A DNA stretch of 64,000 nucleotides from the NCBI GenBank assembly GCA_002269645.1, contig NIVC01001049.1:186001-250000 (forward strand), read 5' to 3'. The DNA is from Macrostomum lignano (lineage: Eukaryota). Of the stretch, positions 44,597-58,290 are shown one piece after another (positions within the stretch are counted from its first letter, which is position 1; each line of letters begins with the position of its first letter). Position numbers and translations under genes: made by a program. Below the pieces are notes generated by a model, which did no database searches, was not told where the DNA came from, and was given only the letters and a program-made list of their open reading frames with translations.

Positions 44597-47063
44597 TTAC
44601 AAGCTTGAACCAACTGGCAACTTCAGGCAGAAAACGTTGCCCGAGCATCTCCGACAAGCAGATGCAGCTGAGCATCGAATGACAGCAGCTTCATCGTAGT
44701 AACTTCGCAGCTGTGCTTGAAGTGCGACACCTGCAAAAATTGCAGGGTTCGAAATATTCTGATAATAAAAAACACAATGCGATAGAAGCTCATGAGGGAG
44801 ATTTTAAGCCGCACCTCAGCGAGCTGGTTCAGTGCAGCTCCGGCCTGCATGCGCCAGACGCTGACTTCCCCGCCGGCCGAGGCCGTGGCGAGGAACGGCA
44901 GGGCGCCGCTCAGATCGTCCGTCAGCCGGCAGAGGGCGGTGATTGGCTGCGCGTGGCACTGCAACGGGCGGTGAGCACAGTGCGATCAAATATTTCTTCT
45001 GAGGTCAGATTTTCAAGACGTTGAAATTCTCTGCAGCTGTTCAAAAAGCTTACCAGAAATCTGCTGACCACTGGGCAGAGCTGCATGTTGGAGTCCACTC
45101 TGAGCACCGAGATCCGCCCGGGTATCCCACAAGGGAATATCAGACAGGCTTCTCCGGGCAAGTCGCCGGCAGCGAATGCCTGCAGCAAGGCCGCAGCTTC
45201 GTCCAGCAAGTCGAGTCGGTCTGAAGCTCGCCAGCCTCCAACAATGGCAGGACCCGGCAACGCGGTGCGCAGCGTCGCCAAGTAAAGCCTGGGGTTGCCG
45301 AGCTGCAAGCAGAGCATGTAGCCCGGCTCCACGATCCGCAGAAGCACCGGCGGCCCAGCCGTCGCATCCAGGTCGCCGGCACTTTGGTGCCGAAGGGCGA
45401 CGAAACTGCCCTGCGCTGCCACCAAAGCCAAAGTGGAATCTTCAAAGCCTACGACTGCCGCGTGATTCTCAGGGATGGGGCAGAGGGCTGTCACGGGCGA
45501 GTGGCTGTCCAGCAGCTCTGCGACTCCGGCATTCAACATGTCACGCAGAAGCGACTCAATGCCTTGAAGTAGGAGCTGCCCACAGCGGATTCTGACCAGG
45601 CCTGTCCGCTGCTGCCAGCTGAGCAACAGAAGGCTACCCGTCGGCGAGTTCAGATGGGTCACGGCTCCCCAAGCTGATGGCGCCAGCATTCGATGCTGCA
45701 GACACATGGAGTCCAGGTGCCACAGCAGCACGGACCCGTCCGCGCCGCCAGTGGCAACAAAAGAAATGTTTCCAAGACGGCAGACTGCGGCGACTCGACT
45801 GCTGTGACCTCGGCTGAAGCCCAGCTCAGCGGGTGGCAAGTTTGAAGGATGCAGCAACTGCACTGGGCGGTCAGACGACTCGGGGTCGCGAACGGGCTGC
45901 AAGTTGAAGGCGAAAAAGCTAACACACTGCACTTGCTAAGCTAACAAACTACACTTGCTAAGCTAACACAGTGTACTTGCTAAGCTAACACAATGTACTG
46001 GCTAAGCTACGAACACAGTGTACTTGCAAGTCTTACAACATGCACTTGTTCGGCTCCACCAAAAGGAAGAGGAAAATGTTGCGTCGCAATCGACCCGCCG
46101 GTTGCAATAAAATTCGCTGAAGGCGCTGCTGGATCCTGGACAGGCTCCTGCGGCGAATCAGTCAGCCTTTCGTCAAACAAAATTCTGCTGCTGTCCGTGG
46201 CGGAGTCACGCGCTGGTCGGCTCCCAGAGTTGCCTGAGAATCCGTGAAGTTGAATAGTTTGCTACTTTTCAGAAAATTGAAGCCAGAAACACACATGACA
46301 TAAATTTGTATTTAAAAATGTTTCACTTACCAATAGCTCGCTGCAGCCGTTGAGAAGAGGCAATTTGGCGCTGAGGTGCGATCGAAGCGCCACGAGGTCT
46401 CTCGGGACACTCCGACAGGTGAGCAACATATCCCCGCCTGTCCATCGGTGTGCTCCGCTCCGAGCAGTGAGGACAGCGAGCTGAGAATCTCGGACAGCAC
46501 ACATCGGACTGCAGATTCCTGTGACTGGTCTCCATCTCGCTGTGTGTGACCAGCTGAGAGCACAGGTCGCAGGTCTCCTTCCTGTGGCGACACTCGCTGC
46601 TGGTGTGTCGCTGCATGTCCTTCTTCAGGATGAGCTCTTTGCACTGCTCACAGCGGAGTGAGTGCCAGTCGCAGCTCTGTTGCACATGCTGGTCCATGCG
46701 AGCCCATTCGAGTTGGACAGAGCAGCCGGCGTCGCAGTTCGGACAGCGGACTCGCAGCTTGGCGACCTCGCGTCTCGTCGCCATGTCGGGAAAGCAGGTA
46801 GCCTGGCTCACCTCGACCTCGACCTCGCCGCCAGCGTCCTCCTCCGAGTGGTGGTCTCTGAGTGTGCAGGCCTCGGTGTTTCCGGGACAGGGACGCTTTT
46901 CCACCTCGTGCAGCAGGCCGGTGACGCAGGCGTGGCACAGGCGGCACCCGTGCGGAGTCTGTCGGGCGTTGAAGAGCGGCTTGGAGCAGCTGCTGCACTG
47001 CAGGTGGGCCGGCAGATCGGAGACCGGCCGTGCGGCCGTCACACTCGAAGGCAGCTCGGACAT
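44597..47063 (-). CDS. TRAF-like RING/zinc-finger module fused to WD40 repeats (copy D); exons 47063-46331, 46233-46037, 45896-45054, 44958-44815, 44730-44623 (44597 if one G is restored)
   Basis: All four introns are GT-AG (97, 140, 95, 84 bp) with compatible phases 1,0,0,0, giving ~674-683 aa. WD-like units: RGHSSRVAAV...FVATGGADGSVLLWHL; SHSPVTALC...VVGFEDSTL; CHAQPITAL...FLATASAGGEVSVWRM. Confidence 0.72.
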
Positions 47064-49412: not shown

Positions 49413-50359
49413 TTAATTATGTTGTGTCTCGGCCTAATGGCCGCTGGACGGGTCAAGGTTCGGGCCCTCCCCGCCTGAGACACCCCTGTCCCAGCCCTCA
49501 CCCCGGCTATTCCTACCCTGTCTCGCTCGGTTCGGCGAGAGTTCGCCTGACCGAACACCCTGGGATCGGCGAGAGTTCACCGTTCCCAGGTCCCTGCAGA
49601 TCCCGGCCCCACGCGGCAACCCAGAAGAACGAAAGCTCGAGCTCACCTCCTCTTGATATATCGAGTTACTAACGAAGCGTTTATTGGCCCGAAGCAGTTA
49701 TTGGCACGCGAAGGCAGAGGTACGCCGATGAACGCAAAAACAGTAAGAACGAAGCGGACACCAATAGAGAGCAAACGTGGAGCGCAGCCCGCTCAGGGCT
49801 AGCATTTAAATAATACACAAAAAAGGGGGAGGGGTGGGGCAGAATGGAGACGGCGAGCCAAACCCTGGGGCCCAGCCGGCTTATCAGCCAGCCAGCCAAT
49901 ACGAGCAGCCCCAGGGTGAGGCGGGCAACGAGGGAGGGGGGGGGCACCCAGATTGGACAGAGATTGGGCCGGGGCTGGGTGCAAAGGGCTAGGCCAGGGT
50001 TGAGACTTACGCCTCTCACAAACCCTGGCCCGGGCGCGAGACGGGGGACGGGGCGGGGTGGCATGAAAACTGAAAACAAAAGTACGAGTACATACACACT
50101 GGAAGGGCGCAGCCCAACATCCTCCCCCTCCACGAAAAAGAAGAGGAGAAAGGGGATGTCAAGCAAAAAGCAACGCATGAACAAGCAAGTCTGAAAAAAA
50201 GTTAATTCAAAAAACGACGGCCGAAAAATAACAGAAAAACTTTGACGCGACGCGTGGATATCGCCGGCATTACAAAAAACAAAAACGAAAAAATGAAAAC
50301 GGGACACAAACTATTGCGTACGCAAAAATTGAAAACGGGCTTAAGAACGCAATTCTACT

Positions 50360-52034
50360 CTACAATCGGCCAAAAAATCTACTACAGTTGGTCGCAAACA
50401 GTCGAGTCCAGTACCTGCGATCACATTCACTGTCCGCTAGGGCTTCCGGCACGAACTTGATGGCTGTCGGGTCCTTGGGGTCTCCACCAAACGGTGCGGC
50501 CGATGTCACTAGCAGGCGCTGCCGCGGGAGACGCTTAGCCCGTTGGACCGCTCGCGGGGATCCTCGGCACCGAGCGGACACCTCGAAGAAGACCCCGTGG
50601 CACTTGCTCACCAGCGCGGCCTCGACGGCCTCCGGCAAGTCCAGGTCCTCGGCCAGCATGACGCTCATCGTTTGAAACTCCGGCTGCCGGAGGAATCCTA
50701 GGGCGACCGCCCAGGCAGGTTCGCCGCCTTCAACTCGGAACAAAACCGGCAGGCCGAACTCCTTGGCAAGCAAGAACTGCTCCATCGCCGCCGTTAACTG
50801 GTCCTGGCGCTGCGACCTCTCAGCGTCCCAATTGAGCTCGACTTCGCCGACCGCCACGACACGCGGCCAGCTACCCGCTAGAAATCGTCGTACATCGTCT
50901 CGCAGCGATGGCCACCACGGTGCAGCACTGGCCTTCAGGCCCAGGGCGAACACGATCCGTCGGTCTTGCAGCAGTGGTCGGACAACGGGACATTCTAGAC
51001 GCAGGCAGTACGGCGAGTTTACAGCCGCTAGACATCGACGCACGCCACGAAGGTCCTCGGGCTGAATCGACCGGCCCAGCCTCGTTAGGTATGCCTTTGC
51101 ATCGACGAGACGCTTAGCCGAGCTGACCTTGCGCTGATTCGGGTCGTCACGGGGGAGACCTCCTGGACCGTGTCGGCCGGTCGTACTTGCTCGGGGTCGA
51201 CACCCGTTAACTCTTCGGTCGCCAAGTCGCGCTGGGCCGTCAGCGGAGTCTGCGAAAGGTGCGGCCCGTCACTCCCCTCCTCCGGGCGCCGCGCGAGGCC
51301 AGGATCCACTAAGAGAGACAGACCCCGGAGCCTCCCCAACAAGGGACCCCCCAACTCACACAGCTCAAAACCCCGCACAGCCAACAACACGCACTCAAAC
51401 GCCGCCTGCAGCACCGAAGGCGGGACCCTCCGACACCTCCCGGAGCCACCACCAGAACCTCTCTTCCGCCCATACTGATTGCACAGAAACGACACAGACA
51501 CTGCTAAGAATCTAGACAACTGCTCAGGCACACTCACACCAGCCCCATCAAGAAACCTCGCCACCTCCTGAACCACCAGGCAAGCTCCTTCACTATCCCC
51601 AGCCCTCAACCGCGCCAGCAGCGCACCCCTCAGCCGCCTACACTCAGCAAGCGCAGCCGGAGCCAATAACTCGGCTGGGATCTCCGCGTGAACTGGAGCT
51701 TCCCCTGCGGCGCTTCCCTTAAGACTAGCCAAAGCTAACCTGACCTGCTCGGGCAACTCAACGTCAGGGGGAGGATTGAAAAAGTAGGCGTACTTTAACA
51801 CCCCTTGACACGCTGCCTCCCAACCCGATCGTATACTTCCCGAAACACTGGGTCAGATAAAACGCACATCGCCATCACGTCTCGCTGAGACTCCGGAGAC
51901 TCTACCTCGGCAGGACAGACGCGGGGCCGCTTTGAGTACAGACGACTACACGCTGCCTCAATCTCCGCAGAGTTAGCAGTCCGACCCACGCCTAACACGC
52001 CATACAAATCAGTCGGTGTCGTTGGCGACGACAT
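50360..52034 (-). CDS. Cargo ORF: J-like domain + helical region + TatD-like domain (558 aa if two single-base gaps are restored)
   Basis: Three consecutive ORF pieces, each offset by -1. J-like: DLYGVLGVGRTANSAEIEAA...VLSDPVFREVYDRVG. TatD-like: LVDAKAYL...IVFALGLKA...VVAVGEVELNW...AKEFGLPVLF...LPRQRLLVTSAAPF...NCSRFF. Confidence 0.7.
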
Positions 52035-52371
52035 GGTCCTCCTGCAATGATGACATTTAAACCCAATCACTACCTATGCCTTGCGGACTAGCAACTGTGA
52101 CCCTGACCTGACCCATCCTATGACATGTTTATTTTACAATACGATTGAGAACGCTTCTTGCCTAGCATACTTTGTAATTTTAATACATTTAATGTTTTTT
52201 ACGTGCTTTCCATGCGTTCCATTTTATGATTTTTTTGTGCTTTGGGGTTGTATCATTTTTTTCATTTTAGGTTATTTTAGGCTTTCTACCATAGACAACA
52301 GCGTGGAGGCATTAATACAAGTGCATATTAAAAATCAATTTATGACGACCGCCTTGTGAGCCCACTGCGAA

Positions 52372-55300
52372 TTAACGATACAATACCGGATTCCCGTAAT
52401 ACGCTGGGGGCACACCCCGACGCTCGCGCAGTCTGCGCGGAGACACGGCTGGCGCCGCTGGAGCCACCGGTGCGCATGGCGCAACTGGCGTTCCCGGCCC
52501 TACTATCCCATGCCGAGGCCCAACGGCAACTGGTGGCACCACATACGAGTAAAACTCCTCCTCCTCCTCAAGTTCCGGCTCTTTAGTCGCCGGCCCCGCG
52601 GGCTCCTGTCTGCACCCTGCCGGCTCAGGCGGATGCGCCGACCGGCGCTGCACTGCCGTATGCCTATTCATCAACCTGAACTGCTCAGGCCGCTCGGGTA
52701 CTTTTCGCAAATTATTATAATGCACTATTTTGCTCTTTCCCCTATTGGCGTGCTTTACCCGGTAATTCAAATCGGATATCTTCTCTAACACCTTCGCCGG
52801 CCCCTTCCAATTGCAATGGAACTTGGCTGCCTCCCCTGCCTGCAGCGCAGGCGAGTATTCTAGGACGGCATCCCCACTTCTATGGCCGGGCCTCGCACCC
52901 TTGAGTCGTACAGCACTTTCTGTTTCCTCTGGTACTGCTGCAGGTTGGTCCGCACCTGCGAATGAGCCTCAGCCAGACTATTACCTAATGACTGAACATA
53001 CGCCGGAGCACTGGCAGGAATGGACTCAGGCAAGGTTCCGATGTCCACTGGAAGCCGCATCTCCCTGGCGTACAGCATGTAGTACGGGGTGTACCCCGTG
53101 CCTCTGTGAACGCTGCTACGGTACGCCATGAGAGACGGGTGGATCAGATCCTCCCAGTCTCCTTCGCCCACCGACTCACTCATCCTGCACTTGATCATTG
53201 ACTTCAACGTCTTATTGAAACTCTCAGCCTGACCATCAGCCATCGGGTGATAGGAGGACGTTCTGCATTTCTTAACGGCAAGCAACCGACACAACTGCTT
53301 CATCAAAGCCGACTCAAAATTGGTGCCCTTATCGGTGACTAGAAATTCAGGACAACCAAAGTGCGCAATCCAGTGATCAAAAATCGCTCGCGCCACCGTC
53401 GGGGCTCGCTGATTGGACAAGGGCACCGCCACCGGCCACTTAGTAAAAGAATCCTGGATTGTCAGCACGAATCGATTGCCACCTCTGGACTTGGGCAACG
53501 GCCCGACAATGTCACTCATGATCCTCTGGAAAGCTCCTTCCGAGCAGATTGGCTGCAAAGGCGCCCGGTTGCTGCGCCCAGGCTTCGCCTTCGCACAGTG
53601 GACACAGCTCCGGCAATACTCTTCCACGGAACGACTCAGCCCCGGCCACCAGTATCTCGCCTTCACTTTCTCTTGTGTCTTCCTAACCCCAAGGTGCCCT
53701 CCTGCAACCCCATCATGAAGCTCACTGAGCACTTTCGGCAGCAAAGCCGGCGGCAGCAAGATCTTTTTCTGGCACCCACTCCCGGGACTCTGAAAATACA
53801 ACAGATCAGACTCTACTCTTATCAGCTGCCGTTGTGCCCACAGCACACGCTCCTCCCACGACATCACTCTAGGCGCACTGGGGTTCGAACCCGGGTCCAG
53901 GGCATAGGAGCGGACAGCTGCAAGCTTCTTCTCGGCCACTTGCGCCTGCTGGACTTCCTTCGAAGACAGCCCACTGCCAAACACCGCGTTCACTACTGGC
54001 ACATTCTCGCTAAACTGGCAGCTAGGGCAGCTCTCATGGCCAGCGTGTTTTCGGTACTTGCGAGACAGCGAATCAGCGTTGCCGTGCTCCTTGCCTGGCC
54101 TGTGAATGATCTCAAAGTCGAAGTTCTGGAGCGACTCAAGCCACCTTGCGCACTGACCCTCTACGTCCTTCAGACTGGCTAGCCACTGCAAAGCTTTGTG
54201 GTCTGAACGAACAGTGAACTTTCTACCTAACAAATAGTACCTATACTTTTTGACGAAGTGCACGACGGCAAGCAACTCTAACCTGGTGGTGCAATAATTT
54301 TTCTCCGCCGCATGAATCATCCTAGACCCGTAAGCGATCACCTTCTCACGGCCATCTGCTTGACGCTGTGACAGGACGGCTCCCAGCCCGACGCGCGAAC
54401 TGGCGTCCGTGTCGAGGATGAACTCCCCGGCACCAGGCGAAAAATCCGGGAATGCCATCACATTCGGTGAACACAAAGCGTCTTTCAGCCTGCAAAACGA
54501 GCTCTCCTCTTCACTACCCCACTCAAACTTCACTCCGTCTGCGGTTAACCTATACAGCGGCGCTGCAATCTCTGAAAACTGCGGGATAAATGACTGATAG
54601 TAGGCGCACGTACCCAGGAATGCCTGCACCTTCTTGGCGCTACATGGCCTCGGCCAATTCTGGATCTCCTCGCACTTGCTCGGATCCGTTGCGATCCCCT
54701 CCTGAGAGACGATGTGGCCCAGAAACTTCACCCGCTCTGCGAGGAACACACACTTGGCGGGCTTCAGCTTGACATTGGCATCCCTCAGGCACTGGAAAAC
54801 ATGCTTCAATCGCTCGAGATGCTGACCCACCGACTTGGCGAACACGACTATATCGTCAAAGTACACCAGGCACTCCTTCCAGTTAACCTCAGACAGGGCC
54901 ATAGACATTAGCCTGGCGAACGTAGCGGGAGCATTGCGCAAGCCAAAACTCATGCACTTCCAGGCGAACTGACCCCTGTTGGGTACCACGAACGCCGTTT
55001 TCAACTGGTCCTTCGGCTCAATCGGGCACTGATGATAGCCGGAGGCCAGATCCATCGTCGAGAAAACACAGTTCCCTCCTAGCGCATCAAGCGTCTCGTC
55101 CATCCGCGGCGGTGGGTAAGGATCTGGCACTGTGACCTCGTTAAGGCGCCGATAGTCTAGACACAACCTCAAGCTACCGTCGGCCTTTTTAACCGGCACG
55201 ATCGGGCTCGCCCACGGAGAGTAGCAGGGATAGATGCGATCCTGCTGCAACAACTCATCAACCTGCTTATCAATTTCCTCCTTCCAGCGCGGTGGAATCC

Positions 55301-56309
55301 TACGCGCGGGCTGACTTACTGGCTTGGCGTTGCCGGTGTCAATCTCATGCGCCATCAAGTGTGACTGTCCCAACTCCGAGCTATCCCTGGCAAAGACATC
55401 ACGATTCCGAGCCATCAGGCGCTCAAACTCGTGCTTCTCATCGCCCGTCAGGCCACATCCTCCCCACTCCTTGACATCGCTGAGGGGGTTCCAGTCGTCT
55501 CGGACACTCTCCACCGAGTTCACCTGCCACCCAGCTGGCTGCTGGGCCGCCACTGGGGAGAACCAACCAATTCGGCTTCCCTTCCTTAATGACAGACTGC
55601 ATCCTGACGTGTTCAACACCCTGACAGCCAAGCGACCGTCCCCGTCAGGCATCTGTACCGATCTGGCCACCATCTGCTCGTTACTCACTCTCCTCTCAGA
55701 CTCCACAATGCCTAGGAACTGAACCCCAGAGGGAACCCTTCTCTGCAACCTGACGTGCACCACCTTCTCTTGACCTGCATTGAACTGCTCAGGCTGACTC
55801 AGCACCAGACGGCAAAGACGCGGCTTATCTGCTGATAAGCGAAACGGATACACACAGGATGCAGTCTGCAAGCAATTCCTAGCAAAGTCAATCGCCATCC
55901 CGTGTCTCACGAAAAAGTCAGTGCCCAGAATACATGCCACAGCCAGTTCCTCGACCACAGCGAACTCGTGCAAAAACTCGGTGTCCCCAACAGAAAACTT
56001 CATCGTCACCATTCCATGTACAGCAATCGGTTCCCCATTGGCAGCGAAAACGGAAAAATTCGGCAAATTCGGCAATAAGTCAATGTCGGCTTTTTTAGAC
56101 TTCAGGAAACGGTTGCTTAACAACGACACGGTGGCCCCGCTGTCAAGCAGACATGCAATCGGGGGCCCAAACCTAAACTGTGCATCCACATAGCCCAGTC
56201 CCTGCCGACTCAGCACACTCTGGGACAAGGCCGCGGCCCCCGATGCACCCGGATTCACTGACGCTGGGGCCCGGACGGGTGCCCCGGCCGAGCCCCCAAT
56301 CCGTTTCCC
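52372..56309 (-). CDS. pol: pol (PR-RT-RNaseH-IN), expressed by -1 frameshift from gag
   Basis: LLDSGAT, YFDDIVV, ILDTDAS, HDGVAGGH...CVHC, SDIVGP/VTDKG/AESFN. The C-terminal WKGPAKV (GPY/F-like) segment is joined by restoring one G at 52872-75. Confidence 0.93.
56245..56309 (-). promoter_or_regulatory. -1 programmed ribosomal frameshift signal (G GGA AAC + H-type pseudoknot)
   Basis: Slippery heptamer 56309-56303 in the gag frame; stem 1 GGGGCUCGG/CCGGGCCCC; stem 2 GCACCCG/CGGGUGC; pol lies in the -1 frame. Confidence 0.85.
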
Positions 56310-57234
56310 GAACCCGACTGGTCCCACCGACGATAGCAGCGGTTGCGCATGTGCCCTGACTGGCCACACTCCCGGCAGACCACTGCATTACGGCACCGAG
56401 CCGTAGTATGCCCTGTCTGCAGGCACCGACCACACTGCCTCTGCTGCTGACTCTGCTCAGGGGCTCGATGCTGCAAGCTCACTTTTGGCTGCTCAGACCT
56501 TGCTGTCGCCATCGGCGCAGTGGGCGCTGCAGCACTTGCTTTTAGCTGAGCCACTTCCGCTTTCAGAGCTGCTATCTCGGCGGCTGCCCTGGACTCCTGG
56601 CTGTTGCCAGCCGCTGCGGCCTGACCCCCACCATGTGCACAGCTCGCTTGCCCTCGGGCTCCATCAGAGCCAACGATGCCCTCACTTGACGCACCCGCCT
56701 AATAGCGTCCTGGAGCGTCTCTGGCGCTTGCAGCAGCACGCTCTCCAGCACCCGGGCTGGCACCCGAATCCCCTTCAAAAACCTGTCTTTCACCAACTCT
56801 TCTCGCTGGGCCGCTGGCAGCATTGGGTACGATTTTCTCATAAGCTCCTTGAGCACGTCTGCATATTCTTCAATGGGCTCGCCATCTTTCTGATTCCTAC
56901 TCTGGAACTCGGTCTTGTAATCTTGAGCAGTCCTATTCTCATCAAACCTAGCCTCTAGCTGCTCAACAAACTCATCATACGGCAAATCATCGGCCAACTC
57001 AAGATTCGCAACAGCCTTAAAAGCAGTATTAAAGTCAAGCAGACTGAGCAGCGCCTGCTTGCGCTGATCCCCTAGAATATGAGCCGCCTCACAATACCCT
57101 GTGAATTGTTGCATCCAAAGGGCAAAGTCCTGTGTGGGCACGTACTTATTTGGCCTCGGCACCCGCTGTGCCACATTAAGTTCGTTTTGCAGACGCGCCG
57201 TCAGGGCGTCAATCAGATCGTCTAAATTGGCCAT
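56255..57234 (-). CDS. gag: gag with two CCHC zinc knuckles
   Basis: ATG at 57234 (MANLDDL); capsid-like helical region; CGRCLQTGHTTARC and CRECGQSGHMRNRC. The two ORF halves join by restoring one G at 56625-29. Confidence 0.88.
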
Positions 57235-58061
57235 GGCTACAAAAACACAGAGACAACCGAAGCAAACAACACACAAATAAACTAGGCAACACACACAACC
57301 CTAAACACACGGCAGGACAGCAGGGGAGAGGACCGCTGATCCTGGTCACGGCACCACTTGTTGTGTCTCGGCCTAATGGCCGCTGGACGGGTCAAGGTTC
57401 GGGCCCTCCCCGCCTGAGACACCCCTGTCCCAGCCCTCACCCCGGCTATTCCTACCCTGTCTCGCTCGGTTCGGCGAGAGTTCGCCTGACCGAACACCCT
57501 GGGATCGGCGAGAGTTCACCGTTCCCAGGTCCCTGCAGATCCCGGCCCCACGCGGCAACCCAGAAGAACGAAAGCTCGAGCTCACCTCCTCTTGATATAT
57601 CGAGTTACTAACGAAGCGTTTATTGGCCCGAAGCAGTTATTGGCACGCGAAGGCAGAGGTACGCCGATGAACGCAAAAACAGTAAGAACGAAGCGGACAC
57701 CAATAGAGAGCAAACGTGGAGCGCAGCCCGCTCAGGGCTAGCATTTAAATAATACACAAAAAAGGGGGAGGGGTGGGGCAGAATGGAGACGGCGAGCCAA
57801 ACCCTGGGGCCCAGCCGGCTTATCAGCCAGCCAGCCAATACGAGCAGCCCCAGGGTGAGGCGGGCAACGAGGGAGGGGGGGGGGGCACCCAGATTGGACA
57901 GAGATTGGGCCGGGGGCTGGGTGCAAAGGGCTAGGCCAGGGTTGAGACTTACGCCTCTCACAAACCCTGGCCCGGGCGCGAGACGGGGGACGGGGCGGGG
58001 TGGCATGAAAACTGAAAACAAAAGTACGAGTACATACACACTGGAAGGGCGCAGCCCAACA

Positions 58062-58290
58062 ATTACTAGAGCTTATAGACTACTAGAATAGGTTACTAGA
58101 ATTCATTTCCAGAGTTCATAGACTACTAGAATAGGTTACTAGAATTCATTTCCAGAGTTCATAGACTACTAGAATAGGTTACTAGAATTCATTTCCAGAG
58201 TTCATAGACTACTAGAATAGGTTACTAGAATTCATTTCCAGAGTTCATAGACTACTAGAATAGGTTACTAGAATTCATTACTAGAATTCA
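58062..58290. repeat. Continuation of the 30/41-bp minisatellite to the right of the LTR element
   Basis: Same CATAGACTACTAGAATAGGTTACTAG core. Confidence 0.92.

Follow-up and report, generated by a model that had tools for sequence, protein, structure and literature searches.

What is the third gene of a young Ty3/Gypsy retrotransposon in Macrostomum lignano, and what might it do for its carrier? The element in question is a minus-strand long terminal repeat (LTR) retrotransposon of 8.64 kb at positions 49420-58061 of a stretch of 64,000 nucleotides (the window; GenBank assembly GCA_002269645.1, contig NIVC01001049.1, positions 186,001 to 250,000 of the forward strand). Between pol and the 3′ LTR it carries an additional open reading frame (ORF3), in which a preliminary description had recognized a DnaJ-like domain (J-domain) followed by a TatD-like barrel, both taken to be captured host domains kept as catalytically dead modules. 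Our analysis leaves little doubt that ORF3 is a real, selected accessory gene shared by a clade of elements. In the window it is made up as follows.

50360..52034, minus strand: ORF3 accessory gene, 558 amino acids (aa) in naturally open copies; window copy broken near 51820 and 51150
51828..52010, minus strand: J-like domain, residues 9-69, with RPR at the HPD site and lowered helix-II charge
51301..51651, minus strand: five-helix bundle, residues 129-245, common to the J-type ORF3 proteins of the clade
50363..51109, minus strand: TatD-fold barrel, approximately residues 310-558; of the ligands only the GE-motif Glu remains, and three His sites hold Lys, Lys and Arg

The boundaries proposed earlier (ATG at 52034, stop at 50360-50362, pol stop at 52372, 3′ LTR start at 50119, all on the minus strand) proved correct. 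Within them, ORF3 of the window falls into three pieces, of which the first matches DnaJ, the last matches TatD and the middle one has no Pfam match. A DNA search of the M. lignano genome with ORF3 returned 22 matches, 19 of them full length with the window's own counted. A single open frame runs through ten of the 19 (nine of 558 aa, one of 562 aa), and the frame is broken in the window copy and eight others. The assembly is described as redundant (PMC12801592; this and most other papers below are cited from the parts of their text available to us), and therefore the match counts are not copy numbers. At both places where the window's ORF3 breaks, contigs of all four public runs differ from it in length, so the breaks near 51820 and 51150 are likely assembly errors. 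Whole-protein work used the naturally open genomic copies.

We compared copies by pairwise Nei-Gojobori estimates of the ratio of nonsynonymous to synonymous rates (dN/dS). Among three subtypes of the window's family, here family A, the ratio for whole ORF3 was 0.29-0.34, with bootstrap upper bounds of 0.50-0.59, against 0.10-0.16 for pol in the same comparison. The ratio was 0.06-0.14 between two sister families, B and C, and 0.10-0.26 among families with a J-domain only, synonymous sites being near saturation in several pairs. ORF3 of the window is under purifying selection, and the cargo is conserved across copies with dN/dS below 1. It is not an envelope (env) gene, because it has no transmembrane segment (the highest 19-residue Kyte-Doolittle mean is 1.49).

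Both outer folds are real. The J-like and TatD-like pieces of the window match PF00226 and PF01026 below the Pfam cut-offs (E 4.9e-5 and 1.1e-5, respectively), and sister-family pieces pass them, the J-domains at E 1e-12 to 1e-17; Pfam matches of ORF3 are limited to these two families. The J-like domain has PDB J-domain matches, with DNAJB13 as the best PDB sequence match (E 6e-5). The C-terminal domain, modeled from an alignment that included eight other TatD-like rows, forms a TIM barrel (predicted local distance difference test [pLDDT] 87.6, predicted template-modeling score [pTM] 0.88). Its top Foldseek matches are TatD-family chains (E 4.6e-12, template-modeling score 0.76 for Staphylococcus aureus YcfH), and the first 14 listed rows are all TatD-family or uncharacterized TatD-like chains.

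The middle domain was modeled as five helices (pLDDT 91, pTM 0.82) and gave no Foldseek match at E≤0.001. It may resemble the integrase-binding domain (IBD) of LEDGF and TFIIS-N; no LEDGF IBD or TFIIS-N-like fold is among the matches listed for the bundle by Pfam, PDB-profile, Foldseek or VIA searches. Neither this conserved domain nor the sister families had been mentioned in the preliminary description.

Alignment reproduced the reported state of the TatD motifs, namely DAKAY, GLKA, GEVEL, Arg and Ala in place of the two internal His residues, and VTSA instead of VETD. Across seven active-site columns, family A reads K, Y, K, E, R, A, A, compared with H, H, H, E, H, H, D in bacterial full-length rows; families B and C read H, F, R, E, R/Q, V/T, S. 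Six of the seven positions are thus changed in family A and five in B and C, and all cargo copies examined have a degenerate metal site. Because these ligands are gone, metal catalysis by the cargo is unlikely. In human TATDN1 the metal is held by Glu112, His149, His174 and Asp222, and phosphate is contacted via His77 (PMC10085689); the Lys and Arg at the His sites of the family A barrel could, by comparison, hold phosphate. The cargo resembles the HxH class of TatD proteins (YcfH, YjjV, TATDN2, TATDN3) in its TIM barrel and GE glutamate, and the DAHAF of the sisters echoes DxHxH; it departs from that class in its changed active site and in the poor scores of host TATDN1/TATDN3-like genes against the cargo profile. 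Those host genes are canonical and intact and contain introns. With the cargo TatD profile, bacterial YcfH-type proteins scored 46-53 bits and host exons 6-13 bits, the bacterial rows having been preselected as matches and the host rows being exon fragments; no TATDN2-like host gene was found among 28 and 34 scored candidates. The cargo provides a case of a TatD pseudo-enzyme on which purifying selection acts. Separately, a 166-aa protein, P0006, is 51% identical to the TatD half of family A and likewise lacks the His and Asp ligands, possibly a sign of further lineages outside the M. lignano assembly.

The J-domain has a different history. The HPD site of the window does read RPR, as reported (KRPRV in the alignment). 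HPD is intact in 10 of the 11 J-bearing ORF3 types, with family A alone reading RPR; RPD or HTD is found in some decayed copies of sister families. Helix II, which with HPD and helix III makes up the Hsp70 interface (PMC10410713), holds two Lys/Arg residues in family A, three to six in sister families and four to five in host J-domains. On the reverse transcriptase (RT) tree, the loss of HPD maps as a derived state of the window's family. The idea of two modules kept dead since capture thus fits the TatD metal site and fails for the J-domain. Like family A, DNAJB13 and Pam16 have a J fold without HPD; in contrast to theirs, the loss in family A took place within the element clade. We also considered whether the J-domain descends from DNAJB13 and rejected this because the sister families keep HPD. 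In a tree of J-domains only, 19 of 26 inner branches were unresolved and the row of one locus, L054, was trimmed at the wrong motif; the family A branch was the longest inner branch (0.9).

Protein searches recovered the same cargo, at 30-40% identity and in the same slot, in other Gypsy families of the genome. Families B and C have a J-domain with HPD that scores above the Pfam cut-off, and every copy seen has a stop or frameshift. Searches with the family B J-domain and, separately, with the middle domain led to families E-I and relatives, which are multi-copy and carry the J-domain, a hinge, an acidic stretch and the helical domain without TatD. In all, this ORF3 core of J-domain, hinge, acidic stretch and five-helix bundle occupies the same slot in families A-I, across six deep RT lineages. 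Two further features vary. The ORF3 of family F (L156:2403-3401, minus strand) combines an HPD-bearing J-domain with an inserted chromodomain (PF00385, E 1.4e-12) that is apart from the integrase; the third position of its aromatic cage appears to us to be Val. SUMO-interacting motifs (SIMs) consist of a hydrophobic core followed by an acidic or Ser-containing tail, and SIM-like motifs of this kind (for example IVVISDDEDE and YILISDDDES) occur in 9 of the 11 types, with none in A or F.

We placed these families on an RT tree of 41 rows (L153, L189 and L208 were dropped from 44 for short coverage) that was rooted at the midpoint and built without named reference RTs. A branch with support 98/96 has all 22 rows of ORF3-bearing loci on the same side, the ORF3-bearing and other RT sets having been picked by different routes and ORF3 not being established in every member of the branch. 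TatD-bearing loci are nested within (100/100). No J, bundle or TatD match was found in 20 other Gypsy loci taken from the top RNase H matches. Our reading of the tree is that J-domain and bundle came first, that TatD was probably added once, in one subclade, and that HPD was lost last. Joint capture of two host domains, as first proposed, does not fit this order: J-domain and bundle would form the older core, which TatD joined in one subclade. As for primer-binding sites, those of three TatD-bearing loci (L057, L055 and L062) are the same as the window's, and J-only families E and G (L153, L163) share another.

Relatives outside M. lignano were found neither at E≤0.001 in protein-library searches nor in a metagenome scan, the libraries being thin on animal transposons. 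Further library searches returned ordinary DnaJ-type proteins, automated M. lignano models, P0006 and weak TatD and DnaJ matches. A literature search by title and start of abstract found no LTR element bearing J or TatD; Repbase, subscription journals, bioRxiv supplements and an earlier M. lignano classification paper lay outside its scope. A recent paper on M. lignano LTR elements (PMC12801592) has no DnaJ, TatD or ORF in its main text and no TatD in its five supplements, where DnaJ occurs in an expression table only; the available text of a survey of about 280,000 J-proteins (PMC10410713) does not mention transposons or retro-elements.

The slot itself has precedents. The preliminary description held that extra genes here are usually env-like; a third-gene slot 3′ of pol is indeed what we see, and it is not only env-like genes that fill it (PMC5408684). 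In the bdelloid rotifer elements Vesta and Juno, ORF3 encodes a DEDDy exonuclease or a GDSL esterase, so there too the slot holds a captured enzyme fold that is family-specific and modular, and the DEDDy enzyme is a 3′-5′ exonuclease, like TatD (PMC5408684). Unlike the dead nuclease fold of the window, which is fused to a J-domain and bundle, the catalytic residues of Vesta/Juno are intact, and DnaJ is not mentioned in the text available (PMC5408684). A captured non-env ORF3 is therefore of a known kind, and the J/bundle/TatD cargo was not found in print within the scope given above.

What, then, might ORF3 do? Polyomavirus T antigen recruits Hsc70 to disrupt a repressive Rb-E2F complex. Like ORF3, it is a parasite protein with an N-terminal J-domain followed by an acidic docking region. 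The comparison is an analogy only, the likeness being known for the J fold alone: ORF3 has no helicase, and family A has no HPD. Arguing from this analogy (PMC13254874) and from the SUMO-dependent silencing of transposons in Drosophila (10.1101/533091), we tentatively prefer, as one possibility, that ORF3 is an Hsp70-recruiting adaptor aimed at SUMO-marked or chromatin-bound repressors, with family A as a nucleic-acid-binding scaffold. Across the clade, ORF3 would bring host Hsp70 to such complexes on the element. HPD-intact forms would act like the T-antigen J-domain, docking via the SIM-like motif, the chromodomain or the helical bundle while Hsp70 dismantles the repressive complex. Family A would have lost HPD, the basic face of helix II and the two SIM-like motifs; with the bundle and a metal-free TatD pocket with Lys and Arg retained, it would be an Hsp70-independent scaffold whose pocket may cap or shield the ends of element RNA or cDNA. 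The fuller version is on the unlikely side as it stands: a T-antigen-like anti-silencing adaptor in which J-domain and SIM would aim Hsp70 at SUMO-marked heterochromatin, with chromodomain and pseudo-TatD as swappable readers, and in which the window's family would have dropped the chaperone arm for a pseudo-nuclease end-protector.

Other elements, too, encode accessory proteins for countering or bypassing host control, namely VANC of VANDAL transposons (PMC6719617) and the ALKB-type (PMC9289625) and CERV (PMC10309623) ORFs of Ty3/Gypsy elements. They differ from ORF3 in having unrelated domains, and none is described in the same sources, as far as available, as recruiting Hsp70 (PMC6719617, PMC9289625, PMC10309623). 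Few proteins encoded by elements are known to counter silencing, and VANC is named as the most convincing case (PMC6719617). If the adaptor reading is true, a retrotransposon clade with its own selected Hsp70 co-chaperone domain and swapped reading modules would add retrotransposons to the viruses as hijackers of chaperones. Function can be tested directly along a natural series of families that differ in HPD and SIM (each present in some and absent from others), chromodomain, dead TatD and internal deletion, and the host is a tractable regeneration model with RNA interference and transgenesis.

Several observations weigh against this picture. The mechanism is read from HPD and the SIM-like motifs, precisely what is missing from the family found in the window, family A, which is both young and numerous in their absence. 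Silencing that depends on SUMO is assumed in M. lignano. The SIM pattern is post hoc, and 3-23% of shuffled carrier proteins match it. The approximately unbiased test neither rejects a single J-domain origin nor shows one (p-AU 0.34). The best VIA match of the bundle, to a B12-binding cap (Z 8.5, root-mean-square deviation 3.0, 87 aligned), is within helical-bundle noise. Taken domain by domain, the dN/dS intervals of family A are wide; they extend past 1 for TatD in two of the three pairs and for the J-domain in one. Finally, there are young elements from which ∼1.2 kb of ORF3 is deleted, with LTRs 99.6-99.9% identical, at different sites, and one of them, L061, retains unbroken gag and pol frames; as these have inserted at different sites, ORF3 is dispensable in cis. 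All that the deleted elements L061, L062 and L063 retain of the TatD domain is its C-terminal half. By RT they fall with family C, yet the ORF3 remnant is 94% identical to L052, a mismatch that suggests recombination between families.

We weighed the adaptor reading against four others. An unlikely one, which survives best, is that ORF3 is an integration cofactor tying the intasome to chromatin; HPD forms would recruit Hsp70 to dismantle the post-integration complex, and the dead TatD would hold gapped or flapped DNA ends. The chromodomain of family F and the basic pocket of the cargo barrel are consistent with it, and TatD enzymes work on DNA ends and abasic sites (PMC10085689). Nevertheless, the 3′ flanks of 15 family A copies have no shared target sequence, the ORF3-deleted elements have inserted recently, and an integrase-binding fold is not among the matches listed for the bundle, whose best match is the one within noise. 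We regard as improbable that ORF3 is a particle chaperone, which would aid Gag assembly, RNA packaging or export, or uncoating via Hsp70, with the barrel as an RNA-binding packaging aid. Viral J-domains do recruit Hsp70 (PMC13254874), and CERV of Cer1 is an LTR-element accessory protein for genomic RNA export (PMC10309623); however, the SIM-like motifs and chromodomain suggest nuclear chromatin, and family A expanded recently without HPD.

The preliminary description had raised the possibility of an Hsp70 decoy. An HPD-less J-domain might serve as a decoy or a Pam16-like dominant-negative partner of active J-proteins; functional HPD-less J-domains exist in DNAJB13 and Pam16 (PMC13254874), and the J-like domain of family A is retained, with a point dN/dS of 0.19-0.46. 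We find this quite doubtful. Basic residues were lost in family A from helix II too, which belongs to the surface that contacts Hsp70 (PMC10410713); this disfavors a decoy, and the absence of HPD is limited to family A among intact types, on the longest inner branch of the J-domain tree. That ORF3 is a decaying passenger or env remnant without present function is barely credible: the window and eight other full-length copies are broken, as are all B and C copies seen, and deletion derivatives exist, but dN/dS is well under 1 at every depth, ten copies are open and no transmembrane segment was found at a top hydropathy of 1.49.

The rest of the element is that of a Ty3/Gypsy retrotransposon, with paired TG...CA LTRs, a primer-binding site, a polypurine tract, a target-site duplication, and gag followed by pol in the order protease, RT, RNase H (RH), integrase. 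It reads as follows.

58062..58065, no strand: target-site duplication, 5′ side, TAAT in minus-strand reading, 4 bp
57359..58061, minus strand: 5′ LTR, TG...CA, 703 bp, with a TATA-like site at 57751, AATAAA at 57624 and a splice-donor-like AG/GTGAG at 57586/57585
57339..57356, minus strand: primer-binding site, begins TGG
56255..57234, minus strand: gag, capsid and zinc knuckles (Retrotrans_gag E 1.5e-5, zf-CCHC E 0.008); one break near 56620
52372..56387, minus strand: pol, with protease, RT, RNase H, integrase and C-terminal domain; one break near 52875
52035..52371, minus strand: AT-rich spacer, 337 bp, 38% GC, closed by an acceptor-like CAG that lies 7 nt ahead of the ORF3 ATG
50120..50131, minus strand: polypurine tract
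49420..50119, minus strand: 3′ LTR, 700 bp
49416..49419, no strand: target-site duplication, 3′ side, TAAT in minus-strand reading

Pfam matches of pol are RVT_1 (E 7e-33), RT_RNaseH (E 2e-33), rve and Integrase_p58_C. The primer-binding site is presumably tRNA-His-like. The sole differences between the two LTRs are three indel bases, in C-runs, and the earlier view that the cargo travels with a young family is upheld. The insertion lies inside a tandem repeat. A PNMA match below threshold and the 4-bp target-site duplication are the only leads toward the Gmr1/Osvaldo cluster. A link to heat shock was rejected: no canonical 3-unit heat-shock element (≤1 mismatch) was found in seven LTRs, the window's included, and the element is not the published family that bears such elements (PMC12801592). 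The LTR of Mlig-id38 is 338 bp long and unlike that of the window element in sequence.

How ORF3 is expressed may be read from the same features. A YAG stands directly before the ORF3 ATG in families F, G and I (three of the six ATG-starting families), 7 nt from it in A and 16 nt in E; families B and C have no nearby ORF3 ATG. In the LTR, no ATG lies between 57743 and the donor-like site at 57586, and an automated UniRef model, P0007, joins that donor exactly to the acceptor before the ORF3 ATG, as a prediction. We infer that a spliced subgenomic RNA expresses ORF3. Among the joints listed for contigs of eight runs none falls at the acceptor, and contigs of four of the runs show no loose end there either, contigs being unable to show absence; no RNA dataset holding ORF3 was among the matches listed. 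The spliced leader of M. lignano ends in ATG (PMC8629364); its AUG was considered as the start for B and C and rejected, no consistent in-frame YAG having been found.

Other loci of the set hold further rearrangements. At L171:4664-7960 (minus strand), a deletion fuses pol in frame with the J-domain ORF3 of family H in a 1099-aa open frame. At L067:2033-3097 (minus strand) and L066:7443-7832 (plus strand), an ORF with the Walker A motif GPPGVGKT and VMFIDE lies 3′ of a decayed integrase tail and a J/bundle remnant; its AAA matches are weak (best E 4e-4), and it may represent a further cargo or have inserted independently. To our eye it resembles the superfamily-3 helicases of small DNA viruses. 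A host ORF at L066:305-1498 (minus strand) has a Ser/Thr-rich C-terminal part that, we presume, resembles aerolysin-type pore-forming proteins.

Around the insertion in the window, a TRAF-type zinc-finger exon occurs in five copies (32400-59700), 94-99% identical and in alternating orientation, as a local gene cluster, and a WD40-repeat exon lies at 44922-45935 on the minus strand (E 1.8e-5).
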